DNA of 61,296 nt, filler included. It is 10 parts of 10 records of this genome, joined end to end, with 100 filler letters (N's around TTAATTAATTAA, not from the genome) between each part and the next. Parts side by side here need not be neighbours in the genome. Positions count along the whole stretch, not along the records: positions 53,603 to 56,926 come from SRR15195285_569; 9 more parts are not named here. One strand, written 5' to 3'. The notes under the pieces are model-generated. The model was not told where the DNA came from, ran no database searches, and saw only the letters and a list, made by a program, of their open reading frames with translations. Of this stretch, positions 1,831-57,026 are shown piece by piece. Position numbers and translations under genes: made by a program. The first letter of the stretch is position 1, and each line of letters begins with the position of its first letter.

Positions 1831-4800
1831 TCACTTCCAGAGCCAGGATGTAGAGAAGAGTGTGGCCACCAGTCCTTTCTTTTTGTTTCTGCCCTGCTCT
1901 TCGAACATCACGTCCTCGATCGTGGGTATTTCCTTTAGATCAGCATGCTTCATCTCCTTGTCAACCTGGGGTCACGCGCCAAGAAACAGCAGGAGAGACG
2001 TGAGAGTTGTTCGTATACGAGGATTCAAGGGGACCAGACAAGGTTCAGACCAGCGCCTGTAGCCTGTCAGATTGATGTGTAAAGCGTGCGTACCTGGACG
2101 GAGAGATTGATAGAGCCCCGCAAGTCCTCGAGTGCTTGCGCCCACTTTTTCAACTCCTCCTCTTTTCCTTCGGCGACAGTGATCTTGCCACCCGCATCAG
2201 TAACCAAGAACCCCTCACCGCGCTTCCCTAGGCACTTGAGCGCGTTGTTGACCATGTCTGCGGAGTAACATGGAGCATGCAGCAGGCCACGGCTACTGCC
2301 ACTAAGCTTAAAGAACGCCGCTATCAGATCCCGCGCCTTTATGCCACCATTGGCCGTCAACTTCTCTAGCTGCGTCGCAAGGAACCAGTAACACTCGATA
2401 AATGGCGCGAGCATCACCGTGAGCAGCAGCATGCTGCGAGCGGATGCCACCTTGATCGCATCGCCACCGTCCTCGGCTGCTGACTCTATCACCCCGTTCT
2501 TCTGCAGTGCGGCCACCACTGCGTCGTCGGTGGTGTCCAGGCCAACAAACTCGTGGCGAAAAGCTTGTCGAAGAACCTCCATTCGCTCGGCGAACAGACT
2601 GTCCGATGGGCTGACACCCTTCTCCACGGCAGCAGTCTCACCAAATGAGCTCACAACAGTGGCGCCGAAAGCTTCCGCTATGAACAGGTGCGACAGTGTG
2701 TTCCGGTAGTATGCCAGCATCAGTGCGGAAGTGCGATCGACCGGAGGCTCAGGGCCATTCACTTGCGTGCTGCCCTCCTTGCGCACACACAGAATCTGCT
2801 TCTCCTGGCTCCAGCTGACGTGATCACCCAGAAGATTTACACCTTTCCTCGCAGCCTCTGCGCTGCATAGCCTTGAGTGTATAAGCCGTCCGCCGCGCTG
2901 GCTCACCTGCTCAGTCAGCCATTCCACTTGGTGTGTGATCCTACCCCAGCCGAGGCCGCTTGGGGATTCCAACAGAAGCGTCGACACCATTGCCGTTGGT
3001 GAAATTTCCATCTCTTCGTGCAGGCGCCGGACCACGTCAAGTGCTATGTGGCGGTCGAGCGCCTTGCGGTCATCTTCAACGCTGCTCGGATCAAAACTAT
3101 CGTCGGCTTGTTTTGCTTTCATGTCAGCAATCGACTGCTGCAACGAGACGGCCTCGCCGAAACACACCTTCACAGACCCAAAGTTCTGCTGCAGACTTTT
3201 CAGCCCGCCAGACACTGCCCCACCGAACGACTCCAGCTTCTTAGGGTTGCCCTTGAGTTCGTGGACGATCTTGTCAATCTCAAGCACCTTCTCGTAGTTG
3301 ATGGTGACAGGCACAATATATGCGTCCGGAATCTGACGCTGCAGCACGGTCTGCGTCACCATTCCCAACATCCCATATTTCGGCGTCAGAGTCTTGCCAG
3401 AGCGCGAGCGCGTGCCTTCGAGGAAGAATTCGAGCATCGGGGCTGAGCGGACAATACTGGCGACGTATGTTTCCAGCAGTGCTCGGTAGGTTGTGTCCTT
3501 AGCGTTCTTGTCCGCAATCGCTTCACGAGAAGTGCCGGGGGCGCCGGTCCTCTTAATGAAGAATGCGCCAGCACCACGGAACAGCGTGGTGATGGGGCCC
3601 ATCTTCAGGAATACTTCGGCCGCACAGATGTGCGGAGCCGGGAGTTTGTTGGCGAACGTGATGTACGAGATGATGAGAAAGTCAATATACGAACGGTGGG
3701 TTGGCAGAAAGATCACCGGCCCCTTCACGACCGCCTCGCGCACCTTCTCCACACCACGTGTGTCGACCAGAATTTCGTCGTAGATCTTGCGGTAAATCTT
3801 CGGAAACACGTAGGCAAAGAGTCGAATGGTCGACATCGTCTGCTTTGCGCGCATCGCCTTGAACTCGGACTTCACCTGGCCTTCGAACTTTGCAACAGAC
3901 TGCCCCGTGCTACTGCTCGCATCCTGGATGGCAGCCTGAATAGGGGGCGACGAAATGATGCTGTCGGCCGTGGGGTCAAGGTCGAACCTAGGCGTGACAA
4001 GGCGTCCAGGACCACCGGCCAACGCAAACTGCATATCGGCGCCGAAGTGCACCGGGACGCTGAGCGTGTGCTTCATTTCCCATGGCGGCACCTGCTCCTT
4101 AAGGATGAAGCGTTGCAAACCGTAGCAGAAGTCGTACATATACTTCTCCCAGTCCACTTGTTCTACTTCGATAACGAAGTTGTCCCTATCCTCGGGGGTC
4201 ATCAGCGGGATCAGGCAGTCAAGCTGCGCACACTCGAATCGGAATTCGTTCGAGACGAACGGAGAAAATGCCTGTGTGAGCAGACGAAGGCGCTTCACTA
4301 AATACTGCGTTTTGGCAGCATTCTGCGTAATGGCCGGGAAGGATTCGTCTGGCTTCTTCCCAGCCAGTTTGCCCGTCGCGACCAAACCGACCAGCTGGCC
4401 AAAGCGTTGATACAGCAAGGCCGGCAGGCGGTAGTTGACGAAGAAAGCCATACGAAACGTCGACTCTGGCACAATGTAGGTAAACCGGTGGCCGACAGCC
4501 TTCTGAGCCATCCGGCCAGGAGTACCAAAGTACTTGTACGTAATTGTCCTAGCGTATCCCCATGTAATTGGGTTTCTAGTGCTGCTGCTCGAGTGATATA
4601 TGTGCAGCGTGTTGGGCTCACTTTTTAGGCGGAGTACAGCGGTGAGGATGACGTTGGTGACCATATCTACAGGGATCTGATCACCGACTGTTTCTGGGTA
4701 GCCCTGAAGGATCGAGAGGTGGCCCAAGCCCGACGCTAGGAACAGAGTAGCACCAGCACCGACTTTGTCGATCCAACCGGGCATCGGCTCTTTGAAGCTC

Positions 4801-5305
4801 GCTCCGACACACGTTGGGCGCACGATCGCGAGCGACATGTCGCCGCGATGCTTGTCCAGCAAAATTTCAGCCATTTGCTTCGAGAAAGTGTATGTGTTGG
4901 GCATGCCACAGAGAATCTGCGGCAAGATACTCTGGATGTGGTCTGAATCCGTTGCAAGAATCCACTCGTACAGTTTCTGTGGGTTGTCGTTGTACCACTG
5001 CTGGTAGATCTTTTCCTGGACCTGCCCAGATTCGCCGGGGTCGATCTCCTTGCGCTTGTTCGAATTGACGTACGCAGTAGAGACATGCACCATGCCCTGG
5101 AGCTTGGCGCAACTTTTAGCGAAGTCCAGGACATTCATGGCGCTGACGACATTGTCTGTGACGATCTTCTTCAGCGGCTCCATGAACTCTACGTTCGCTG
5201 CACAGTTGATCAGCCAGTCAGTTTCCTCGCGCAGCCTCTTGAGCTCGTCACCGCCAGCACCCAGATTTGGCTTCGACACGTCGCCAGCTATCACCTCCAT
5301 GACAG
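1831..5305 (-). CDS. Bifunctional fatty acyl-CoA reductase / GPAT-DHAPAT-family acyltransferase (FARAT type), 5'-truncated; exons 5305-2094 and 1965-1831
   Basis: FAR motifs VHVSTAYVN, PNTYTFSK (YxxxK), IVRP..EPMPGWID and PVDMV. Acyltransferase blocks THRSYIDF (HxxxxD), GAFFIKR, FFLEGTRSRSGK and VPVTINYEK. A phase-0 intron at 1966-2093 (gtacgc..cccag) adds a 44-aa last exon. The N-terminus is lost at the contig end. Confidence 0.92.
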
Positions 5306-5348
5306 CTGCGGGTAACGCGAGCGGATCGCTCGTCAAAACTCATTCGCA

Positions 5349-5375: not shown

Positions 5376-5475
5376 NNNNNNNNNNNNNNNNNNNNNNNNN
5401 NNNNNNNNNNNNNNNNNNNTTAATTAATTAANNNNNNNNNNNNNNNNNNNNNNNNNNNNNNNNNNNNNNNNNNNN
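5376..5475. other. Artificial contig linker (44N-TTAATTAATTAA-44N)
   Basis: The same 100-bp spacer, with stops in all six frames, occurs nine times in the window. Confidence 0.99.
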
Positions 5476-8095: not shown

Positions 8096-9939
8096 TCATT
8101 GCTGCTTGCCATCGTCGACGCTTACTCCATGTCCTAGCAAGTCTCGCCCAAAACAAGCGCGTCCTCCACAGATGAGAACTAAAGTCGATACCGCTTGATA
8201 CATGCCGATGAGATACATCCTTTCGCCTCCTGCGCTCCCGAGAATGCGCCCACCGATAGTCGCTCCCACCCCGCGCGCAATTCCCCAGTGCACAGTGTTC
8301 ACCAGCTGCTGCATTGCCGAGGCGAAGCCGGGAGGAGCGACGCGTGTGGCGTGCGCCGTGAGCGCTGACCAATTTATCGCAAAGGTGATTCCGTGTAGCA
8401 GCTCTATCGGCAAAACGGCCCAGATTCCCCACGGCCCGAGTGCTGCAATCTTCTGCAGGTTCACGTACCTGCTCCACGTTTGGGTGAGGCCAAAATGCAT
8501 CATTGAAATGGAAATCGTTGGAACAAGTTCTGGCAGTGGGCAGAGAAGACCTACCACAGAAAGCGGACAACATATGCTACTTGTGCAAGCGCGAAGCTAC
8601 CGCTAACCCCAAGCGCCTTCAGAATTCGGCTGGACATTCGAAATGCCGGGAGCTCAGCCTAGACCACACAAGCCATACAAACAAAAAAGGTTTGTTAGTT
8701 GCGCAATACGAGCTAGGTGCAGCAACAACGTCTGATAACGCACCAAGCAAGTCAGCAGCCGCGCAGTACCCATCAACACGCCCTGTATGTGTGCACGACC
8801 GAATCAGGTCGAGCAGCATCATAATCATACTTTGATCAAAATGATGCCATGAGAACGCGACGAGTGCAGGGAGGAGCGGAAGAGATGCAACAGCGTATCA
8901 GGGGGCGATTCTCTTTGGATTCGGTCTGCTCACCGGTGCGCCGATATTACTCAGGTGGACATTGAAGAAGACATCGATCAGGGCGCTCTCCCAGCCACAT
9001 AGGAAAGTCACCACCACGACAAAGAGCATCTTTGGGCTCGTACACGTCTTCAGGAGCTCGCTTAGCTTTGGTCCAGCATCAGCGTTATCCTCCTTGCCAC
9101 TGCCACTAGATTCGTTTTTCTTCTTGGCATGGAGCATGCTGAAATCCAGACGACTAATGAGCGGCACAGACAGCACCTGGATCGCGGACGCGGCACCAAA
9201 AGAAGCCAGGTACGTCAGGCTCGGATTGACGATGGACATTAGCGCGCCACCGCCAAATGCTGCGAAGCCGAACGCAGCCGAACCGAGCAATCGAATCTCG
9301 CCGTAGCGATCCGGGCAGACCATCATCGTAGAGGCGTCGAACGTCGGCGAGTGGTGTGCCCCTGCCAGACTGTGGAGCGTATTCCAGATCAGCATGCCGA
9401 CGTATCCTTGGCCTGGAAGTACCATTGCGATTTGGGTCACAGCCTCTCCGAGTGTGGCTAGCAGCACCAGTGCCTTCTGTGCCTGCAACTTGTCGAAGAG
9501 CGCAGAGATGACCGGGTTGACGAGCGAGCAAATCACAGATCCCTGAAGGTGCGGCATATCAAACCACAAGGACCTTTCAGCGGAGCTGCTTGCGTTCTCA
9601 CTGCAGAGCACGCGCACGTGTTTCGTTTGGCAGCCAGCCTGAGCTGGAGCACGCGCGCACCAAAAAGAGAATCGAGCCGATCTGGTCCGGCGAGATCACT
9701 GTCGAGAGGTACCTGTCCCAGTGAACAAGAAGCTTTACCACCCAGCAGTCAAAACAGCAGAGGATGCCAATGCAAGACCGATCAGTCGCCGCGGCACGAG
9801 AAAAACTCAGCGCCGTCCAGTCTCCTTGAGTAGCACAGCTGAATGATTCTCACAGCGGGCGGAAGGTATTATAGAGGCCGATCCCGATGAAGTGCGCGAT
9901 CGTCACTGCCTTGCGCGTGCCGACTTGTGGATCAGCCAT
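8096..9939 (-). CDS. Major facilitator superfamily transporter (MFSD6 / MFS_1_like), multi-exon
   Basis: The spliced product reads MADPQ...RPLYLSTVISPDQIGSIL-GSVICSLVNP...YGEIRLLGS...AELPAF...VRFLWY...ELLHGITFA...GIARGVGATIGG. It has about 12 hydrophobic segments and MFSD6-type motifs. Confidence 0.85.
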
Positions 9940-10274: not shown

Positions 10275-10374
10275 NNNNNNNNNNNNNNNNNNNNNNNNNN
10301 NNNNNNNNNNNNNNNNNNTTAATTAATTAANNNNNNNNNNNNNNNNNNNNNNNNNNNNNNNNNNNNNNNNNNNN
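10275..10374. other. Artificial contig linker
   Basis: 44N-TTAATTAATTAA-44N. Confidence 0.99.
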
Positions 10375-14248: not shown

Positions 14249-14348
14249 NNNNNNNNNNNNNNNNNNNNNNNNNNNNNNNNNNNNNNNNNNNNTTAATTAA
14301 TTAANNNNNNNNNNNNNNNNNNNNNNNNNNNNNNNNNNNNNNNNNNNN
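14249..14348. other. Artificial contig linker
   Basis: 44N-TTAATTAATTAA-44N. Confidence 0.99.
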
Positions 14349-15570: not shown

Positions 15571-18500
15571 TCAGGAGATTGTTGTCTTCCGCGTCATGAA
15601 CGCTTTGCGCTCCTTCCAATGGAGTGTGTCCTGCACTTCTTGCTCTGACGCCAATCTGTCGTGATTTTGCTCAAACTTTTGCTTCATGGCCGTGGCTGTG
15701 AGCAAGCTTTGCAGTCCAGAGAGCGTCTCTCCACGCTTTGGCTTACGATACGGCTTGCCAAAACGATCCTCCCACATCTCTGAGAGAAGCAGCCAACATT
15801 GTCCCCCGAGCTGGCTCGCCGAAGCCTCCGACGCTGGAGAGCCGACGCACTCCCACACCATGCGTGCGCGCTCAATCAGTGGTTCACCAGGCTGTGGATG
15901 CAGTGGGTACGGCTCAAGGTCATCTGCGTCTTGAGGGCGTCGGCCGAGACGCTGTAGATATGGACCGTCATCTCCGACTGCCGGAAACGCAGCTGGCGGA
16001 CAGATGCAGTCAATCCTGCCAGCCTCGCTCAGCATCTCCTGCAGCTGTTCTCGATTGTCGTCGACAACTGCCTGAAACATTATTCGTGTTGCTAAGTACT
16101 CAGCACAGTGCATCTTTCGATCTTTGTAAGCAGCCTCATAAAGGCTCAAGCCATGATGGTTTCGGGCGTTTGCCAGCCGTTCATGGCCTGGGGGAATTGG
16201 CGACCTGTCTAGCAGAACAGCGTCCGCGGGTGCGACTGGCTGCGAAATGAGCAATGCCAGAATTGCTGTATCGTCTGCTTGGATTGCACCAAACAGTGTA
16301 GTGGCGGTGGCTTCATCTACGAGCTTAGTCAGGTCATCGACTGCTATCGTTCGCGAGACTCTCTCACCGTCCAGTAGAACCTCAGCAATTTCTCGCCCAA
16401 GATGATCCACTGTCCCGGTCAGCTGAACGATTCTGCCAAGTTTGCCAACCAGTGCGTGTTCTCCCGTGAGGTCCGCCGCCCTCCTAATCTTGATCCGATC
16501 TCTTGGGTTGAACCATTCAACCAAGCCTTCAGCACAACGCAACAACGTTGTGACATGGTCACTGCCACGGAGTGACTGTTCGTGGTTCTGCAGGATGAGT
16601 TCGATCACGCTACCCGATGGGTCCATACTCAAGGTATCTTGACTAATCGAATCAATCGCTAACTTGTCAATCTGATACGTCAACAAAGCCTCATTGCATA
16701 GTTCAGAGAATGACAAGCCATCAAGGTGCATTCTGAGCGTATCCAACGGGTCTACCGATCGCAGATTCTCACTGGAGCTGGAAGCATCCATGAGTGTCAC
16801 CCAGCCCTTTCCGTCATGCAACTTCAAGCGGACAGCCCCTTCGTCAGTACACTGGTACTTCTGCACCTCTACTAGTGCGCCAGGTTTCAGCTTGCCGCAT
16901 CGCTGAGATTTGGCATACACCTTAGATTGCGCTGCTTCCGCTTCATAATACCTCAGGCTCTTCGTGATCCAAAGTGGTGAAGCCGCACAGACTTTAAATG
17001 GATAAGACGTGGCATCGTTAGACAAGTATTCCAGTTGGACCGTTCCGTCAGGCCTGGTAAGATCTAGATAGACATGCTCCCTGGAAAAGAGCGCGCCATT
17101 CGTTTCGATTCCGACAACACCCGACAAAAGCTGTGCACGAGCTGTAGCTACCACCGACTCTCCTACAGGCAAATGCCCGGCCGGCAGGGGGGCTGATTCT
17201 GGACTCATCTCGGTACGAAGTTCTGCAACTTGAAGCACCTTGTAGCGGTACACGTCCTGACGCTTTTTCTTGCGCATCATCGTCCGTTGCTCCTGCCTCT
17301 CCAGCCCTGTGATCCCTCCATTTGCAGACGAGCCATCTTCCTGCAAGATGTCCACCAATTCTTGTTCTCCATCAGAGTCTTGCATTTCCGACAACGGGTT
17401 AGAGAACTTCACCGGCGACTGTCCTTCCTCGTCAAATATCCCCGCTGGCTGTTTCATGGTCTTCCGCTTTTCCTTCTTTTTCTTCTTTTTCTTCTTTTTC
17501 TTAGTACGCGTTTTTTTGCCATTATGCTCGTGCTCCATGGCAGTCGGATTGGCAGTCGGATCGATGGCAGTTGGATCCATTGCCACTTCGTGCTCCGACA
17601 ACGGCGATTGCCGTTCATCGTCAAATGAGCCCGATCCTGATGCTCCAGGCAGCACTGGGCTACCAGTCCGTCTGCTTGTCTCGACATCAAAGGAGACGCT
17701 TTCTTCCGACTCAAACGAACTGGTTTCAGCAGCGTCTTCAAATATGTTCTCTATGGGGTTAACAAACTTGGTGGTAGTCAGATCGACAGCATTTTCGTCA
17801 TGCCTCTGTGCCTTCTTCTTCCGTTTCCACCACTGCCTTCTAGACGGCTTCTTGGTTTCTACAACAGTCTCCGATGCTTGTGCATTAGTGAGCTCTTCCA
17901 ATTTGATGCCGACGGCTTCCGCAGACATCTCTACAAATTCGACGTAGTTGACGATTTGAGCAACTTCGTCTTGGGCACCATCTATTTGAACTGCCGAAAG
18001 AAGTGCAGCGAACTGCACTGGCGAAAAAGACAATCCGAAACTCCGTATAACTGAACGAAAGTCTTCTGCAGAAATGGTGCCAACGACCTCGGGGTCGAAT
18101 GCACGGAACTCAGCTATCAGCTCGTCCTCGGTCATGGAATTCAACTTGTTCAGTTCATAGATAATGATGTCCACCGCAACTTCGCTTTGTATCTGTGGGA
18201 CTGCTTTGATCTGTGGGGCTGGTTTAAAATCGTCATCTTCCGACTCGATAGTGTTGTCATCGGTGAAACGAATGATGCCGAGTCGGCGTTTGTTTTGCCG
18301 TTTATCAACGACAGTTTGTAGCCTGTCAAACGCATCTGCCACAACGTGCTCTGGAGTGATGCGATTGACATTGATGACGGAGTCAAGCGTCAAGAAAGCT
18401 GCCACCCCAACAGCGCAGTCCCAAGCATGCTTGGAGGCTGAGAGGCCGACCGGGTTGCCTTCTTTCAAGTCAAACTTCTCGTCTGCTTCGGGGTCCGCTT

Positions 18501-21500
18501 GTCCTTGTGTGATGTCTTTGCTTTGCAGTTTGTCTACAGTTTCGGTTAACGTGAAGTCGGAGCCTCCTCGTTTCTGTACCATCCGTGCTTTTTTCGTAGC
18601 AGCCGCTCGTCGCTTACACTCACACCATGGGTTCGGCAGTGTACAGCTATTGCATCTTCCTTGACGACCTTCTTCATAGTCTATTCCCTCTACCAGGCGT
18701 GCTTTCCGGTTTCCAGTGGTTCTGTCCCAAAACGTACCTGGCAAGGCGCGTGCACCGGATTCGTCTACCGCTCCTCTGGAGATGAACGATCGTGCATATA
18801 CTTGCAATACTCTGGCTGCATGATTCTCGTGCGCTTGTATTAGCAATGCACTCTTGCCCACTTCATCCGCAAGGGTCAGACATGAGCTGCTGAACCTGAC
18901 ATGGCAGAGAGCCAGCAAAAGGTCGAAAAACGGCACTCGAATATCCGCTCTGCCAACTTCACAGTCCAACACATCGTCCCGCGTGTATGTCCCAGGTGCC
19001 TTGCCTTCAGGATGGAGCTCGAACAGGATTCGGTTGAAGAAGTGAGGATCAGCCTGTGACATCATCGAAAATGTACCCATACCAGGCTGTCGGATGAACC
19101 AGCGTACTCGTGCTAGACTGATATCGTCATGAATGCTGTGCAGAGATCCCTTTGGTCCAGCCGACCTAACCCAGCGGCGCTTGAAAAGCTCAATATCCAT
19201 ATCAGACACAGCCATGTCTTCTGAGCCCATGAGGTCAAAGTTGTCAAGGAGCAGTGCAATGAACAGATTGGTCAACAGGAGGTTCGCAGTGAACCAAAAG
19301 CAGGCAAAAAAGACCAGTACATGAGAGCCTTTCATGCGCGCGCATTCTTCATTGATACGCATCATGGACTGCCCAGTACACAGCTGGAACAGTACTATCA
19401 TTGCTGAGGGCACTGTTTCGAAGTTGGCATCAGCAGTGATGTCTCGACCACGGGGAACATCTCCACACAGCTCATGTGCGTAGCAGCCGAAGATGAAGAA
19501 CATCACCAGCATGATGCTGCACAGGTTTACCACTTGCGGTAACGCTAACGTGACCATAAAATGAATTTTTTGAATCGCATGGACGCGCTTCACAACGGAG
19601 ACCAATCGTAGAGCCCGGACGAATTCCAGAGCTTTCAGCTGTGGCCAACCCAGACCCGTAATTTGGTGTAGTGTTGTTATCCAGAGTGAGACTAATACGA
19701 CAGCATCTACTTTGAAGTCGCGCGCGTAAATGTCAGCTCCATAACCACAGATCGTGCAGCCAGCCTCTACGGTGAACACAACCAGCACGTACTGATCAAG
19801 CATACGCAGAACCTCTGCCATCATGCCTGATGGGTCCATCGACAGAGTAGCTTGCTGCCCAATCATCGACACGATGCCTGATAATATCGTCAAATCTACT
19901 ACCAGTATAAATTTGCGCGACTGTACGACGGAATAACAAAAGTATGCTGCCCCGCCAAACTTTTCCTTTTCGGGCGGAGGTATCAGTTCCATCCGTAGAG
20001 ACTCCATGACAAACATACTCATGAACTGCCAATTGCGTTGCTCAGTGGTCATCAGAGAGCTCCCAGATGCTTGTGCAAAGAATTCACACAGCATACCTGT
20101 AAACAAGTTAGTGAGCATGAGGCTGTTCCACACGATGAAACTAGCGAAGAAACAAAACGACCCAATCGCGCTGAAGTCTTTGCTTGGTGGTTGATCCACG
20201 TACGTTGTGTCAATAGTCCAGAACCACATCTCAGTCCAACCCTGAAGTGTCCATACGGAGAATAGAGAATTTGATGCTTCCACAATGTTGTCCCAATGAA
20301 AAGGTCGATTTTCCCAAGACAGACCGGCTGCCTCGCACTCATTTCGATTCAGCAGCTCTGCAGCACTGCACCTCCATAAAAGCCCCTTGAAAAGGTTCAT
20401 CCCAATTATTCCGAACGTCAAGAATGAGCCGGCCATCAGAACGAGTGCAGTCCATACTGCGGTCAGCGAAGCCAAGAATGACTTCACCATGAGTCGAAAT
20501 CTGCGAACCATATAGAGAATGCGAACGGTTTGCAGTGGCAGAACAAAGCGTGCATACGGGACACCCATGGCTGTTGAGATCTGCGTTGCGAGCACTGCCA
20601 GCTCAAATGCTGTGCTCGGGCTGGGCCATTCGTCTTCATCCGGCCCACCTAAGAAGCGGTAGGCTACGATTTTGACTAACGCCTCCGCACTTAATATGCA
20701 CAGCACGAAACCACGAATCAACAGCGCAAATTGTGACTGGCTTTCGCTTGAGTTTCTCTGGTCTCCTCTGAGCGCAGTGTCCACTGCGCTTAGCAACACC
20801 ACCACCAGCATACAACCACGGAATGCTCGAGTGCCTGCAATGTACTTCCAAAACGTACGTTTTTTCCATCCACCGCCGCTGCATGCTGGTCTGACACCAA
20901 CCGCACTCGCATTCTGAAATCGTTGTCGCCTCACTCCCTCATTCGGAGAACATCGGCACAGTAGGTCTGCGCCCGGGCATTTTCTAAGCGTTCTTTTAAC
21001 CGATCGCATGGGCGTAGTATCCATGGTGCGCCGGGTAACCCTCTGAGTGAGTCTAGCGCCTCGCATGAATTCGTCCAACGTTCTGTTCTTCAGAACATTC
21101 ACGGTCCCAGTCTCTGAGAGCATCGATTCAACTCCACGTATGCCGCTTTGCAGTGTATTGACCCATTCCTTCGGGCCCGGTGAATCTTGAGCCATCGCCT
21201 GGATGTATAGCCCAACCTGAATATCGCGTTTTTGCTCGTCATCTAGTTCGAAATTCTCCATGAAGATGGCCACGAACAGGTTTCCTAGGACGAAGGTACA
21301 GCAGAATGCAATAAATGCGAAGTAGTAAACCGCAACATCTCCAGCGCAGTCCATCTGCTGGAACATTAGGTCTGTCCAGCCGTCCCCTGTCATGACTTGG
21401 AACGAGACTAAGAATGCTTGCCAGAAAGTATCGAAATTCGGCTGGTGACGTGGTCTCTCCAGCGCCACTACGCCGCTAGAGCAACCGTGAAAGAGGTGCA

Positions 21501-24500
21501 TACCAGCAATTGACGCCAGCGTCAAAAGGAAGAAAATGAAAATGACCAGTGAGATAATTGCATCAATACCTGAGAATGCCTTGCTCGCCATCTCCTTTAC
21601 GGATTTTGAGCGGAAAATGAACTTAGCAACCCGTGCTGCCCGCACAAGTTTGAAGATTCTGAGCATCCGAAGGACTGTACTTCCTCTTGTGTCGGACTGC
21701 TGCTTGCGCATCAGCAGGATCCAATAGCTGGCAAGGCTTGCTGACACAATCATGAAATCTAGGCGGTTCAGCATATATCGGAAGTACTGACGAAACCCCA
21801 GAGACTGGAGCTTGACCAATAGCTCGAATGTGTACCATCCAGTGAATGCCGCCTCACCGATATCGAGGATCAATTTAACGTCCGGTTCTGGTCGATGGTG
21901 GTCGCATGCCAAGAACACGATGTTAACCAGCACTATGGCCGTTGTCGTGACGTCGAAGGCATCGCTTCCCATTATCCGCCGGCAACGTCTTGTCAACGGT
22001 GGATTCAAAATCTGTAAGATATGGCGACCAGAATCGTCTGCTCTGCCGCGTGCGCCGGCGCGACGCCCATCGTCGAGAAACCTTTCAACAAGTGTCTTCT
22101 TCACGCCACCTGTGGCATCAAGATTGCGTGATGCTTTGCGCACCTTGATGTAGGAGTACGCGAGCCCTGCTACAAAGAGGTTGACTGTGAACAGACCAAT
22201 CCCCACCACAGCCAGGGCAAATGTTGGCCATGCAAAGGCCGATGTCACAACAAAATTCCGTCGAAATCGATTGCATACTATGTTCCAGTTGTCAAATGTG
22301 ATGATGGCACTTGTCGTCACTAGAGAGTCTGCAAAACTGTCGAAGCCAAAATACCCGTCCGAAGGCGATGTCCGGTTGGGCTCCCAAACGAAGCATGCAG
22401 ATGAATCAGGGAACTGGATTGTGCAGTCAAATGCAGCAGGGCATTCACCCAGTATTTCGCCGCAGTCTTTGCATCCATCGAGCGCACCACATGTGACGTC
22501 AGCAACACCTTGAAACAGTTGAAAGCCCACGACGTACAGGAGGAGGAACAAAAACAGCAGCAACAGCAGTACGGCCCCGATCATAATCCGATTGCCGATG
22601 ATTGAATTCAAGATGTTTCGCACATGTACAAAGAATCGCAGTGCACGGAAAGATCGAAGCATTGCCAAAGCAAACCCTATCTTGTCTGATACGTTGAAGA
22701 AGAGAGACCCCAGGTACAGAGCCCAGACCGCCGTGATAATGACGAAATCGAACACATCCCAGCCGCTACTCAAGAAGGCCGTCTCTCCTCGTACTAGGCC
22801 GCTGACAACAATTCGCATCAGCATCTCGGCCGTGAAAATCACCATGATGAAAAAATTGACTACTGCCAGGGCAGACGTGGACTCCTGGCCAGGTGTTTGC
22901 GCCGCCATCAACCCAACATTGAAAAATATTATCAATACTAAGACTCGATCGGTGACTGGGTTTTGGATCAAATGCTGGCACCATTTACGAAAGGGCGAAT
23001 CGCTCGGGAAGAGGCCAAGGGAGAGCCCTGTCAACTCGGATTTCTGTGCGAATGCAGCTGCTAGCAGGTCATTGAGGTACTCCTCCGCGGCACCGGCGCC
23101 TTCATCTGCTGCCTCAACGACCGAGAGGATTGGCCCACTGGCCTTTGAGGTGAACGCCGATAGCTTCAGTTTGCTTCGCAAGATTCCACTTTGAGTAGGG
23201 CTTGGTGTACCACACCACCACTGTGCCCACTCAGCGAAGTCGACTTTGCCATCGCCTGAAGGATCCATCTCTCTCAGGGCCAGGAGAACATCGTACGCGT
23301 CCGCGTCAACGTGTAAGTCGTTGACCAGCTGCATCAGCTCCTTGTGACCCACAAAGCCGGTCCCAAGTGGGTCTACGCAGTCAAAAAGGGAGCGTAGTGA
23401 CCGCTTGCCATTGGAGCTACCCTTGTCGACGGCGTAAACCATCGCGCCTTTTGCCGCGTGAATCAGCCTAGTCATGCGAATTGCGCGGTGGATGTTCATG
23501 GTAACCGGATCGCGAGTCTCAGCTTTATACCACGCAAAGAACTCCTCGAGCGATACTTCACCCGATCGGTCCCGATCTAGGCCAATCCATGTGGAGTAAA
23601 ACTCCTGGGCATTTAATGACAGGCCGATGTACCCCAGCAACCTTTTGAAGTCAGCACGATCGAGAAAACCATCACCGTCTAAATCCAACTCATCAAACAG
23701 CACCGCGCCTGCATCCAACAAAACTAGGGGTGAGACAGTAACTATTTGCGGCGACGCTGGTAGCAAACTTACTCGCTTGAACCTCCTTTTTCTGGTGCTC
23801 AATACGTTTCTTGAGCAATTCGCTTGCATTTGCGCCCTCTGTACTACCCACTGCCCATTGCACAAAACCATCAAAATTGACCTCGTTCCCGAATGCATCC
23901 ATGTCGATCATCATCCCCTCCAGCTCAACGGCGCCGAGTGCTCTGCCGCTTTCGCTAGCAATACCTAAGCTCTGCAAGAGCTCGCCTAATTCGCGTACGT
24001 CCAAACTACCGCTCCCGTCTGTGTCAGCCAGCGCAAATATGGCCTTCAGCTGCTCGCGAGCCATCAAGCTTTCCGTGAGGCTATCTCCCCCGGCTCCTGC
24101 AAATGGTACCATTCGACGGACCGCGGCCAGCTTGCCGTTGTCTTGCCACTTTGCATGATAAGTTACCTTCGCAGGCTTGAACTCGATTAGATTTTTCCGA
24201 TACTCCAACTGGGCGGCTGGTATCTCTATCTGCTTCTGCATGCTGGCTGTGGCCGACGCGACTGCACTCGTTCGCTGTATGAAGTCCGTAGCCCGGCTAA
24301 GCCTTACTGCATGAGCTTTCCTCGTCATTGCATCCACGATACTCATACTCTGGTCACACAAAAGCTCGAGCTGCTTGTTCGATGCAGAGAACACGATCAC
24401 CACTGCTGCATGGTCGCCTCGCCACATTACGATCTCATACCAAGAGCAAGTCCAAAGCTCAGCGCCAGTAATTCGGTCCAGCAGACCGATGCCCTCTTTG

Positions 24501-25992: not shown

Positions 25993-26092
25993 NNNNNNNN
26001 NNNNNNNNNNNNNNNNNNNNNNNNNNNNNNNNNNNNTTAATTAATTAANNNNNNNNNNNNNNNNNNNNNNNNNNNNNNNNNNNNNNNNNNNN
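25993..26092. other. Artificial contig linker
   Basis: 44N-TTAATTAATTAA-44N. Confidence 0.99.
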
Positions 26093-36561: not shown

Positions 36562-36661
36562 NNNNNNNNNNNNNNNNNNNNNNNNNNNNNNNNNNNNNNN
36601 NNNNNTTAATTAATTAANNNNNNNNNNNNNNNNNNNNNNNNNNNNNNNNNNNNNNNNNNNN
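36562..36661. other. Artificial contig linker
   Basis: 44N-TTAATTAATTAA-44N. Confidence 0.99.
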
Positions 36662-44566: not shown

Positions 44567-44666
44567 NNNNNNNNNNNNNNNNNNNNNNNNNNNNNNNNNN
44601 NNNNNNNNNNTTAATTAATTAANNNNNNNNNNNNNNNNNNNNNNNNNNNNNNNNNNNNNNNNNNNN
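44567..44666. other. Artificial contig linker
   Basis: 44N-TTAATTAATTAA-44N. Confidence 0.99.
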
Positions 44667-47847: not shown

Positions 47848-47947
47848 NNNNNNNNNNNNNNNNNNNNNNNNNNNNNNNNNNNNNNNNNNNNTTAATTAAT
47901 TAANNNNNNNNNNNNNNNNNNNNNNNNNNNNNNNNNNNNNNNNNNNN
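47848..47947. other. Artificial contig linker
   Basis: 44N-TTAATTAATTAA-44N. Confidence 0.99.
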
Positions 47948-53502: not shown

Positions 53503-53602
53503 NNNNNNNNNNNNNNNNNNNNNNNNNNNNNNNNNNNNNNNNNNNNTTAATTAATTAANNNNNNNNNNNNNNNNNNNNNNNNNNNNNNNNNNNNNNNNNN
53601 NN
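53503..53602. other. Artificial contig linker
   Basis: 44N-TTAATTAATTAA-44N. Confidence 0.99.
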
Positions 53603-53842: not shown

Positions 53843-55126
53843 ATGGCGAAGGTACTCGTGGTGGGCGGCGGTGGGCGAGAGATGGCGCAGGCCTGCACCA
53901 TCGCGAAGTCGCCGAGTGTGGAGGCGGTGTACTGCGCTCCTGGGAATGCGGGGACGGCGACGGCGCCGAAGTGTTCCAACGTCGCGATCAAGGACTCCGC
54001 GATTGAGGAGCTGGTGGCGTTCGCGAAGGAGACCGGGATCACGCTCGTAGCCGTCGGCCCGGAGGCGCCACTGGTCGCTGGGATCGCCGATGCGATGGCC
54101 GAGGCCGGCATCCCGTGCTTTGGTCCGACGAAGCTCGCGAGCCGACTCGAGGCATCGAAGGCTTACAGCAAGGAGTTCTTCATGCGGAACAACCTGCCGA
54201 CGGCGCGCTACCAGACATTCACCGACGTCGCGGCCGCCAAGGCGCACGTGGAGGCGATCGACTACCCTGTTGTGGTGAAGGCCTCAGGCCTCGCGGCAGG
54301 CAAGGGTGTGCTCATCCCCACCACCAAGGAGGAGACTCTCGCCGCGCTCGACACGGTCATGGTCGAGAAGGCCTTCGGCAGCGCTGGCGACGAGTGTGTT
54401 GTCGAGGAGTGCCTGGTCGGCCCGGAGTGCTCTGTGCTGGCGTTCTGCGACGGTAAGACCGCAGTCTGCATGCCCGGCGCGCAGGACCATAAGCGCGCCT
54501 TCGACGGCGACGACGGGCCGAACACCGGCGGCATGGGCGCGTATGCTCCGTGCCCGTGCTTGACTCCCGAGCTTGTGCCGGTTGTCGACGACATCATCAA
54601 GCGTACCGTCACCGCGCTGGCGGCAGAAGGATCTCCATACATCGGCGTGCTGTTCGCTGGCTTCATGCTCACGGAAACTGGGCCCCAGCTATTAGAGTAC
54701 AACTGCCGCATGGGGGATCCAGAGACGCAGGCCGTCCTTCCGCTGCTCAAGTCTGACCTATACGAAATCATGCTCGCGTGCACAAAGGGGACGCTTGGGG
54801 AGCAGACAGTGGAGTGGGCCACTGACAGCGCCGCGACAGTCGTCATGGCTGCAAAGGGCTACCCTGGTTCCTACCCGAAAGGTCTGGCCATCTCCGGTTT
54901 GGACGCGGCGGCGGCGAAGGATGAGGCCATCACGGTGTTTCATGCCGGCACAAAGCTGGAGGGCGATGGCGTCGTAACGTCAGGCGGTCGTGTGCTCGCC
55001 GTGACAGGGGTGGGACCGACCCTAAAGGACGCGGTGGCTAAGGCGTACTTGGGTGTAGAGGAGATCAGCTTTGCTGATGATGGTGCGCAGTACAGAAAGG
55101 ACATCGCGTATCAAGCACTGCTGTGA
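53843..55126 (+). CDS. purD: Phosphoribosylamine--glycine ligase (GAR synthetase), monofunctional
   Basis: Motifs VLVVGGGGRE, APGNAG, VGPEAPL..GIAD, LEASK, VVKASGLAAGKGV, QDHKR..DGD.GPNTGGMGAY, EYNCR.GDPETQ, FHAGT, GGRVL and YRKDIA. Confidence 0.98.
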   Translation: MAKVLVVGGGGREMAQACTIAKSPSVEAVYCAPGNAGTATAPKCSNVAIKDSAIEELVAFAKETGITLVAVGPEAPLVAGIADAMAEAGIPCFGPTKLASRLEASKAYSKEFFMRNNLPTARYQTFTDVAAAKAHVEAIDYPVVVKASGLAAGKGVLIPTTKEETLAALDTVMVEKAFGSAGDECVVEECLVGPECSVLAFCDGKTAVCMPGAQDHKRAFDGDDGPNTGGMGAYAPCPCLTPELVPVVDDIIKRTVTALAAEGSPYIGVLFAGFMLTETGPQLLEYNCRMGDPETQAVLPLLKSDLYEIMLACTKGTLGEQTVEWATDSAATVVMAAKGYPGSYPKGLAISGLDAAAAKDEAITVFHAGTKLEGDGVVTSGGRVLAVTGVGPTLKDAVAKAYLGVEEISFADDGAQYRKDIAYQALL

Positions 55127-55153: not shown

Positions 55154-55209
55154 GTAGGGCAGCGCAGTTCAGACAGAGGCCGTAGGGCAGCGCAGTTCAG
55201 ACAGAGGCC
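55154..55209. repeat. Perfect 28-bp tandem duplication between the convergent 3' ends of purD and larC
   Basis: gtagggcagcgcagttcagacagaggcc occurs twice in tandem. Confidence 0.9.
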
Positions 55210-55303: not shown

Positions 55304-56926
55304 TTACCTGCTCGAGTGCAGATGAGCAGCGGCGGCCTCCGCTTGTGCGAACACCTCCTTGATCGGCACGTTGCACTCGGCCGCCCGCGCCTTGCAATCC
55401 TCGTACTCTGGATGCACGTTTACGACGCGATCACCCCACACACCAAGCTTCACGGACACTGGCCCGTAAGGTGTGGTGAGCGTCTCGAAGCGCCTGCCAA
55501 TGCTGAGGCGCTCAATTCGTTGTACTCGAACTCCGAGTGTTGAAGACTGCGTCAAGTAGATCTCAAGCACCTTCGAGCGGACCGTCGGGCTGTCATCACA
55601 AAGTGTGCAAAGCATGAAAGCTGGCCGCCCCTTTTTCATTAAAATGTTTGTCACCCACGCGTCACGTGCACCCGCGCCAAGCAGATTGGCTATGATCGAT
55701 TCGAATAATTGTGGATTGATGTCATCCAGGTTGGCCTCAATCTGGAGCAGCTCATCGCTCTGCAGGGAGGCCGCGTCACCAATTTCCAATGCTGCTGCGG
55801 AGCTTGTTTGCTCGAGTGCTGCCGCGCGGTCAGTCCTTGCGGTGCCAGCAGCAGCAACAGCAGCACCAGCAGCAACAGCAGCGACAGCATCGGTTGGGGG
55901 TTGTGCAGCTGCTGCCTCGTTCCCAGCATCGGTAGACACTGCGTCATGAGCATGCGAGTGTCCGTGTCCGTGTCCGTGAGCATCATCGTGGGCATGCGCG
56001 TGTCCATGTCCGTGTGTCGGGGCAACTTGTTCCATTGTGAGCGCCGGTGCTGGAATTGGTGCCGGGGCAGGAGCCTCGCCAATTTTAGGCCGACGCACAG
56101 TCGCTGCTTTGATGTTTTGCCCGCTCCCGCCCATCGTTCCGATCACTACGCGCACACAATTGGGGCGGTCGCCGAACTCCTTTGTCCCTGCGCCCTGTGT
56201 GAATGCGCACGCCCAAACAGTGGCAGTGCGTCAGCAGGCTGCGCTGCACGAGGCGCAGACGCTGTCACCTTGCCATTCCGGGCTGGGCACGGCATAGCAG
56301 ACAGCAAACGAGCACTCACATATCCAGTTGCCTGAGGAACGAAAGGTGGAGGAATGCCGAACTTGTCGTCCGACACCAGCCCACGCAGAAGGCATGCACC
56401 GGTCGGTGTGATCAATTCGCCTCGAATGGCTGGGCACGGAAATGTCGGCACGCCACAAAGTAGCTCCAGTGTTGCCGGGGCAGGGACCGGCATGAGACCA
56501 TGCTGACAACGCACAAAGCCAGAGGTATACGGCAGAGAGGAGCAGTATACGTTGCCGTCTCCGAGTACGCCCATCAGCTCCAAGCCGAGGACGACACCGA
56601 CTGTGTCGATGATCGAATCCACAGCACCAACCTCGTGGAAATGAACGTCCTCGACCGACATTCCATGCACACGCGCCTCGGCCTTGGCGAGCTCCATAAA
56701 CGCCGCTAGAGACTGGCGCTTCACCTGCTCAGAAAGAGTAGAGGCATCGAGCAGTGCCTTGATCTCAGGGTACCCGCGCATAGGGCCGTCGCCGTGCGAA
56801 TGCCCGTGCGCGTGGCCGTGCGCGTGGCCGTGCGAATGACCGTGGCCATGCCTTTCGTCCTTTTCAGTGCTGTGGCCGTGCGAATGGCCGTGGCCATGCT
56901 TCTCGTCCTCCTCAGTGCTGCTGTGG
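55304..56926 (-). CDS. larC: Nickel-pincer cofactor nickel chelatase LarC, 5'-truncated; exons >56926-56320 and 56194-55304
   Basis: Motifs LAKAEARVHG...VHFHEVGAVDSIID, HGLMPVPAPATLELL, GELITPTGA, IEANLDD, MKKGRP, TLGVR and PEYEDC, plus His-rich tracts. GY|GAGTKEF..RPN is restored by a 125-nt gtgagt..acag intron. Confidence 0.95.
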
Positions 56927-57026
56927 NNNNNNNNNNNNNNNNNNNNNNNNNNNNNNNNNNNNNNNNNNNNTTAATTAATTAANNNNNNNNNNNNNNNNNN
57001 NNNNNNNNNNNNNNNNNNNNNNNNNN
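56927..57026. other. Artificial contig linker
   Basis: 44N-TTAATTAATTAA-44N. Confidence 0.99.

Follow-up and report, generated by a model that had tools for sequence, protein, structure and literature searches.

A probable intron-bearing protist gene for a LarC-type nickel insertase with expanded histidine-rich regions

LarC is a cytidine triphosphate (CTP)-dependent cyclometallase that inserts Ni2+ into pyridinium-3,5-bisthiocarboxylate mononucleotide, giving the finished nickel-pincer nucleotide cofactor. The stretch of DNA analysed here, referred to as the window (61,296 nucleotides, filler included), is made up of ten separate contigs, the ninth of which carries the 3' two-thirds of a larC gene on its minus strand, ending at the contig boundary at position 56926. 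This gene is probably an intron-bearing nuclear protist gene for a full LarC orthologue that would finish the nickel-pincer nucleotide cofactor and, as part of the same reading, it is held with like confidence to belong to a eukaryote-specific clade, which would have been acquired from bacteria long ago, the intron having been gained since. The LarC family and its function are already known, as is its occurrence in unicellular eukaryotes, and the pathway has been partly demonstrated in oomycetes; mildly new are the intron, the separate protist subclade, the coherence of the clade, the Fervidibacter-type nearest neighbours, and the extreme His-rich loop and linker. The gene would add an intron-bearing, clearly nuclear case to the few eukaryotic genes for this cofactor, and shows that these form one clade rather than scattered contaminants. 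A role of the nickel-pincer cofactor in protist and algal nickel use is a testable question, and the extreme loop and linker are a naturally occurring test case for the LarC mechanism put forward recently.

Gene structure and family membership

The upstream exon, exon A (56925..56320, minus strand, within a feature spanning 56320..56926), comprises 202 codons, is truncated at its 5' end by the end of the contig and ends in PQATGY. Its residues 1-44 (56925..56794) form the tail of a His/Glu-rich repeat region, and residues 45-202 form the LarC1 core with the motifs RVHG, VHFHEVGAVDSIID, CQHGLMPVPAPATL, and GELITPTGA. After an interruption of 125 nt (56319..56195), exon B (56194..55307, minus strand, 296 codons) begins with GAGTKEFGDRPNCVRVVIG and is followed by the stop codon TAA at 55306..55304. 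The start of exon B (56138..56194) is the end of the LarC1 domain and includes the equivalent of the conserved residue R231, while its last part (55307..55750) encodes the LarC2 domain, the CTP-binding hexamer core, with LLQIEANLDDINPQ, MKKGRPAF, TLGVR, and PEYEDC in succession.

Both halves of the gene are recognised by curated family models. In Pfam PF01969, with a cut-off of 22.1 bits, exon A scores 179.2 bits (E 1.8e-52) over profile positions 45-216 and exon B 152.4 bits (E 2.5e-44) over positions 213-374, and the two pieces therefore abut in this profile. The NCBIfam equivalog model TIGR00299.2 (nickel_LarC1) matches exon A at 173.9 bits against a cut-off of 90, and NF052512.1 (nickel_LarC2) matches exon B at 123.5 bits against a cut-off of 50. 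Among solved structures, exon A aligns to Moorella thermoacetica LarC (PDB 12bi, E 2e-35), and exon B aligns both to the same structure (E 2.6e-30) and to Lactiplantibacillus plantarum LarC2 (6bwo, E 6.8e-21); matches in the Protein Atlas were to 'Nickel insertion protein' clusters only. An earlier note on this DNA, made by a model from the letters, had named the gene from its strong LarC motifs, and these scores and alignments confirm that identification: judged by its sequence, the gene encodes a full LarC orthologue.

The 125-nt interruption is predicted to be a spliceosomal intron of phase 0, set within the GYGAG motif where the LarC1 domain ends. It opens with GTGAGT, closes with CACAG and has a branch-like CTGAC about 35 nt upstream of its 3' end. 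Its length is not divisible by 3, and reading through it therefore shifts the frame and leads to a stop at 56146. When it is removed, the spliced junction TGY/GAGTKEFGDRPN (TGY/GAGTKEF, the slash marking the junction) aligns without a gap at this point with GF/GAGTKEFADRPN in P0123, GS/GAGTKEM in P0124, and bacterial GY/GAGK in an alignment of 69 rows. Relatives of the gene are interrupted likewise, the open reading frame (ORF) P0122, from a relative with 94% identity, leaving the protein at the same TGY/VS point as the window larC, and P0002, the downstream ORF of a relative (92% identity over the LarC2 region, 86% over the whole ORF), re-entering it at Q/GAGTKEF. As both break at the same point, the interruption occurs in independent assemblies. 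The claim in the earlier note of a GT-AG intron at 56195-56319, whose removal restores the GYGAG motif, is thus borne out by canonical signals, by the gap-free junction, and by the break point of the relatives.

The part of the gene missing at the contig end can be supplied from a 465-residue database ORF, P0121, which is 100% identical over all 202 exon A residues as well as over 57 residues of intron read-through and is therefore the same locus in a longer contig. P0121 begins with MGRLGAVAMAGVKIAYFDCFSGIAGDM, which is how an ordinary LarC starts apart from 12 additional residues, and shows no evident targeting peptide. A fusion, which had been suspected of hiding at the missing 5' end, is accordingly absent, with the normal LarC start lying 12 residues after the Met of P0121. 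Joining residues 1-206 of P0121 to the window exons gives a full-length protein of about 704 residues. The contig itself ends in a 48-nt tandem repeat (56824..56920, two copies, 89% matches) encoding HGHGHSHGHS(S)TE(E/K)DE(K/R), of which P0121 contains one further copy upstream, and this repeat probably explains the assembly break.

Conservation of functional residues

Residues are numbered after Moorella, with the Moorella sp. LarC P0109 as a ruler that matched the published Moorella residue at 21/21 positions checked. In the accessible part of a study of the structure and mechanism of Moorella LarC (PMC13510736), mutants of H108, H118, and H160 retain <10% of wild-type activity and mutants of H116 about 60%, and the residues that markedly reduce activity when replaced or are reported as strongly conserved comprise D15, R71, E104, H108, H116, H118, E119, D124, D128, H160, P166, E187, and R231. 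All 13 are kept in the LarC assembled from the window and P0121, the equivalent of D15 sitting in the part supplied by P0121, outside the window. The LarC1 His cluster and acidic pocket, taken as these residues less P166 and R231, are identical at 11/11 positions, and E104, H108, H116, H118, E119, D124, D128, H160, and E187, together with P166, are identical in 27/27 members of the eukaryote-type clade described below. Across 42 bacterial rows, 68 columns are at least 90% conserved, and 66 of them are identical in the protist protein, the exceptions being changes of L to I and of L to M; for the window-encoded part the count is 61/62, and for LarC2 21/21. Unlike in Moorella LarC, H53, H72, Y180, H226, N238, and Q241 are not kept here, positions which also vary among the 42 bacterial rows. 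By these measures the predicted protein shows every hallmark of an active nickel insertase, and conservation suggests that a nickel-pincer pathway may be active in this protist.

Phylogenetic placement

A search of longer proteins returned five named eukaryotic LarC homologues among the best 120 matches to exon A, at 46-54% identity: Globisporangium ultimum 'Nickel insertion protein' (P0126), Aphanomyces invadans H310_01068 (P0197), Scytosiphon promiscuus (P0168), Pseudo-nitzschia multiseries (P0133), and Attheya sp. (P0141). The supposition of the earlier note that sporadic eukaryotic homologues may already be known was correct, since databases list LarCs of oomycetes, a brown alga, and diatoms, and the accessible text of PMC11770544 records nickel-pincer genes in some unicellular eukaryotes. 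The precomputed domains of the Pseudo-nitzschia protein P0133 include the ZIP transporter PF02535; its sequence is that of a LarC1 with a long His-rich run, and the match is probably a low-complexity artefact, not a fusion.

Prokaryotic relatives were collected from a scan of one genome per species, in which 596/600 pattern matches proved to be relatives. Of these the best 80 were retained; many phyla are represented among them, and none exceeds 54% identity to exon A. A FastTree phylogeny of 289 rows (the window LarC, 119 + 101 database proteins, and 68 ORFs with a length of 340 residues or more from prokaryotic loci, out of 73 recovered from the 80 loci) places the window LarC in a clade of 28 rows (support 93) which contains 5/5 named eukaryotes and 0/68 prokaryotic loci, while the next clade out (support 94) brings in Fervidibacter/Armatimonadota sequences. 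A quick mixture-model tree of 69 rows recovers the same clade with 27 rows (Shimodaira-Hasegawa-like approximate likelihood ratio test, SH-aLRT, 94), adjoining eight Fervidibacter-type rows (93). For a careful IQ-TREE analysis of 50 rows, 19/69 were dropped, namely four fragments (P0122, P0178, P0133, P0212), P0191 as a near-duplicate, three rows of the Fervidibacter type, and eleven bacterial rows that were long or odd in composition. In this tree 22 rows form a clade that includes Globisporangium, Aphanomyces, Scytosiphon, and Attheya (support 100/96), and which together with five Fervidibacter-type rows is supported at 99/93. Within the clade, the window LarC groups with P0123 and P0124, then with P0125 and P0132, apart from the subclade of oomycetes, the brown alga, and diatoms.

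The tree is unrooted and shows neither the direction nor the number of transfers. The phylogeny that the earlier note had called for to separate horizontal gene transfer from vertical inheritance gave a placement in a well-supported clade with named eukaryotes and nearest to Fervidibacter-type bacteria, which argues for an old acquisition rather than contamination.

The histidine-rich loop and the interdomain linker

Two regions set the protein apart from its bacterial counterparts. The His-rich loop of LarC1, which lies mostly outside the window, has 180 residues and 43 His, compared with 10-104 residues in the 42 bacterial rows, though some bacterial LarCs also have long His-rich loops of up to 104 residues and 44 His. 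The expanded interdomain linker (55751..56137, minus strand) comprises residues 20-148 of exon B, 129 amino acids rich in Pro, Ala, and His, with GTGTCC repeats at 55958-56015 and a second His block, HGHGHAHAHDDAHGHGHGHSHAHD, of a kind that is rare within the eukaryote-type clade. Counted between Moorella positions 235 and 252, the linker has 133 residues and 11 His, as against 12-49 residues (mostly 13-20) in the bacterial rows, and the window LarC thus departs from the short linker of 13 residues found in Moorella. In relatives at 74-86% identity the frame of the linker is kept by in-frame insertions and deletions and the HGHGHAHAHDD block is retained; the linker is therefore coding. According to the accessible part of PMC13510736, shortening, stiffening, or replacing the 13-residue linker of Moorella LarC lowers activity to <10%, and the linker is not conserved across LarCs. 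A long linker therefore marks a variant and does not exclude membership of the family.

The larC contig and its host

The larC contig (53603-56926, 3,324 bp) also holds purD, which encodes phosphoribosylamine-glycine ligase (53843..55126, plus strand). This is a stand-alone gene of 427 codons with no intron, scoring 521.7 bits in TIGR00877 against a cut-off of 288, and it is convergent with larC, with 177 nt separating the two stop codons. Its apparently marine relatives have 70-95% identity. Among named relatives, protists come closest: an MMETSP transcript has 68%, dinoflagellates about 58-60%, and Ectocarpus, Chrysoparadoxa, and Nannochloropsis 57-58%, and the first named bacterium (Anaerolineae) has 54%. 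Many of the protist relatives (dinoflagellates, Ectocarpus, Nannochloropsis) are proteins of 630-730 residues with a formyltransferase domain, PF00551, which the purD of the window lacks. Between the two stops lies a perfect 28-nt tandem duplication (55154-55209, two copies of GTAGGGCAGCGCAGTTCAGACAGAGGCC), presumably located in the 3' untranslated regions. The purD relative P0241 (95% identity) and the LarC2 relative P0005 (85%) are both listed with a 3,225-nt contig from the same source, and the N-terminal ORF P0122 and the C-terminal ORF P0006 are both listed with an 8,545-nt contig, a hint that relatives may likewise have purD next to larC and a larC in two pieces.

The other nine contigs encode plainly eukaryotic proteins, including a cyclic-nucleotide-dependent kinase, a SHIP-like phosphatase, a class I aldolase, and a CH-like flagellar-type domain. 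The tetranucleotide profile of the larC contig correlates with the mean of the others at 0.87 (range among contigs 0.76-0.93), and the codon use of larC shows a correlation of 0.78 (other genes 0.57-0.90, the pool including each comparison gene itself), both of which are weak evidence. The statement of the earlier note that larC is resident in a spliceosomal genome and is not bacterial contamination is upheld by the canonical intron, the break point of the relatives, the protist-like purD, the composition, and the clade placement together.

Proposed function and alternative readings

Judged from its homologues, the protein would use its LarC2 domain as the hexameric core that activates the substrate with cytidine monophosphate (CMP), and its LarC1 domain, through the His cluster and acidic pocket (the E104 equivalent), to insert nickel. 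The His-rich loop of about 180 residues and the 129-residue linker would most likely act as extra nickel-gathering surfaces, and the cofactor would most likely serve a 2-hydroxy-acid epimerase of the LarA family, by analogy with Phytophthora. The gene structure, the family, the conservation, and the clade are read from the sequence; we infer the enzyme activity, the role of the His-rich inserts, and that LarB, LarE, and an enzyme using the cofactor are present.

Several observations weigh against this account of a cofactor-finishing protist LarC. The first 206 residues of the protein are those of P0121, outside the window, and the 129-residue linker could, by analogy with the Moorella variants, mean altered or lost activity. 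A Pfam scan of 138 window ORFs of at least 120 residues, in which the two larC ORFs were entered as exon-trimmed pieces, found no LarA, LarB, LarE, nickel transporter, or urease, a result which says little for ten small unlinked contigs. The ultrafast bootstrap of the careful tree is not fully settled (correlation 0.979), and eukaryotic origin is only assumed for 17/22 members of the clade in that tree and for 22/27 non-window members of the FastTree clade.

Three other explanations have been weighed against the same body of evidence. The great majority of LarCs are prokaryotic, the contig measures only 3.3 kb, and the LarC of L. plantarum is made by a programmed frameshift, as the accessible part of PMC13510736 describes; the contig might accordingly be bacterial contamination or a very recent transfer, with the 125 nt reflecting faulty assembly or a frameshift, whether programmed or not. 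This is highly improbable given the GTGAGT...CTGAC...CAG signals with excision exactly at a conserved motif, the position of the interruption inside LarC1 and not at the LarC1/LarC2 boundary, the break of independent relatives at the same point, the ceiling of 54% identity among the best 80 prokaryotic relatives, the protist-like purD on the contig, and the clade with named eukaryotes at 100/96. The contamination and frameshift readings were rejected on the intron signals, the shared break point, the prokaryotic identity, purD, and the clade.

The remaining two explanations accept the gene as a resident LarC and differ in what it does. An intact LarC might no longer make the cofactor, or not make it only, being mainly a protein for nickel storage or delivery, or a decaying relic without partners, to which the roughly 54 His in two expanded low-complexity regions (the loop with 180 residues and 43 His, the linker with 133 and 11, beyond the bacterial ranges of 10-104 and 12-49 residues), the sensitivity of Moorella LarC to linker changes (PMC13510736, accessible part), and the lack of LarB, LarE, and LarA among the window ORFs would lend themselves. 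It is nevertheless unlikely, as the strictly conserved catalytic and CTP-domain columns are all kept (66/68 overall, 21/21 in LarC2), which is unexpected for a relic or a pure storage protein, while long His-rich loops are also found in some bacterial LarCs and relatives at 74-86% identity keep the frame. Rather more doubtful is that the cofactor serves an enzyme other than LarA, for example a nickel-pincer enzyme of the aldo-keto-reductase type as recently found in bacteria. A 2026 paper (PMC13524815) reports, in its accessible part, bacterial nickel-pincer-dependent enzymes unrelated to LarA that adjoin larB, larC, and larE, and shows that bacterial LarC can supply such enzymes too; no LarA was seen among the window ORFs. 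Against this, the main text of that paper makes no mention of eukaryotes, and according to the accessible text of PMC11770544 the sole user characterised from a eukaryote belongs to the GntE branch of LarA homologues. An intron-bearing nuclear protist gene for a LarC that finishes the cofactor is thus the explanation preferred here.

A broader proposal is put forward tentatively, as one that may well not hold. LarC, and nickel-pincer chemistry along with it, would be ancient and widespread in a monophyletic group of eukaryotes that takes in oomycetes, brown algae, diatoms, and one or more apparently marine protist lineages. It would derive from one acquisition from a Fervidibacter/Armatimonadota-like bacterium and have been remodelled with giant His-rich nickel-gathering loops and, here, with a His-bearing linker ten times as long as in bacteria. 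If this is true, an organometallic cofactor would account for part of the nickel demand of marine protists, which is commonly ascribed to urease, and the long linker would put to the test the present view of how the intermediate moves from one LarC domain to the other.

In the literature searched, no study of a eukaryotic LarC itself and no paper joining nickel-pincer with phytoplankton was found. Searches there for LarB, LarC, or LarE with diatom, oomycete, or stramenopile, and for lactate racemase and LarA with Phytophthora, gave only PMC11770544 as relevant. The accessible supplement text of that paper does not mention eukaryotes, and its figure S1 and tables may list some.

Other features of the window

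The ten contigs are separated by nine identical artificial linkers of 100 nt (N44-TTAATTAATTAA-N44), at 5376-5475, 10275-10374, 14249-14348, 25993-26092, 36562-36661, 44567-44666, 47848-47947, 53503-53602, and 56927-57026. Adjacency across these linkers is meaningless, and the DNA past 56927..57026 is an unrelated contig outside the larC gene. Genomic context before 53603 or past 56926 was rejected, as both sides are artificial linkers; extension of the contig past 56926, which the earlier note had recommended, stemmed from a misreading, the Ns after that position being the artificial linker at the contig end and not a scaffold gap. An Rfam scan of the whole window gave 0 matches and no ribosomal RNA.

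On other contigs, a single ORF of 2,778 residues (15574-23907, minus strand) encodes an ion channel of the voltage-gated type that has four repeats and, at its N-terminus, EF-hands (Ion_trans, four stretches, E 2e-121). A 1,090-residue ORF (2070-5339, minus strand) combines a fatty-acyl reductase (FAR; NAD_binding_4 + Sterile) with an acyltransferase that carries a GPAT C-terminal region, and looks like a FAR-acyltransferase fusion of the ether-lipid type. An MFS_1_like transporter (8099-9695, minus strand) is divided between two ORFs, matching profile positions 51-245 and 262-371, with a donor-like CCG/GTGAGC at 8933 and an acceptor-like stretch CTAAC...TCTAG; this split is probably a second GTGAG-type intron.

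Comparison with known systems

The predicted protein shares the LarC1 + LarC2 architecture and the strictly conserved columns with the structurally solved LarC of Moorella thermoacetica (PDB 12bi/12bj/12bk/12bl) and LarC2 of L. plantarum (6bwo/6bwq/6bwr). In contrast to Moorella LarC, the window gene is eukaryotic with a spliceosomal intron, and its product has about 704 residues as opposed to about 400, with a His-rich loop of about 180 residues instead of about 10 and a linker of 129 residues with a His block instead of 13. As with larC1/larC2 of L. plantarum, the LarC coding sequence cannot be read from the DNA as one ORF. In L. plantarum, however, the break falls between the domains and is bridged by a programmed ribosomal frameshift (PMC13510736, accessible part), whereas here it consists of 125 nt with splice signals inside LarC1.

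Among eukaryotes, the accessible text of PMC11770544 describes LarAH15 of Phytophthora nicotianae as an active D-gluconate 2-epimerase and the first nickel-pincer-dependent enzyme of a eukaryote to have its activity confirmed; for this, purified LarB, LarE, and LarC made the cofactor with which it was loaded in vitro. This is a stramenopile using the pathway that LarC feeds; unlike the window LarC, LarAH15 is a user enzyme and not the insertase, and no homologue of it is found among the window ORFs. The named eukaryotic LarCs belong to the same clade as the window LarC and share with it the signature GAGTK(D/E)F..(H/R)PN at the junction region as well as expanded His-rich loops. The window LarC differs from them in being only 46-54% identical over exon A, in its separate subclade (P0122-P0125, P0132), and in the His block in its linker.

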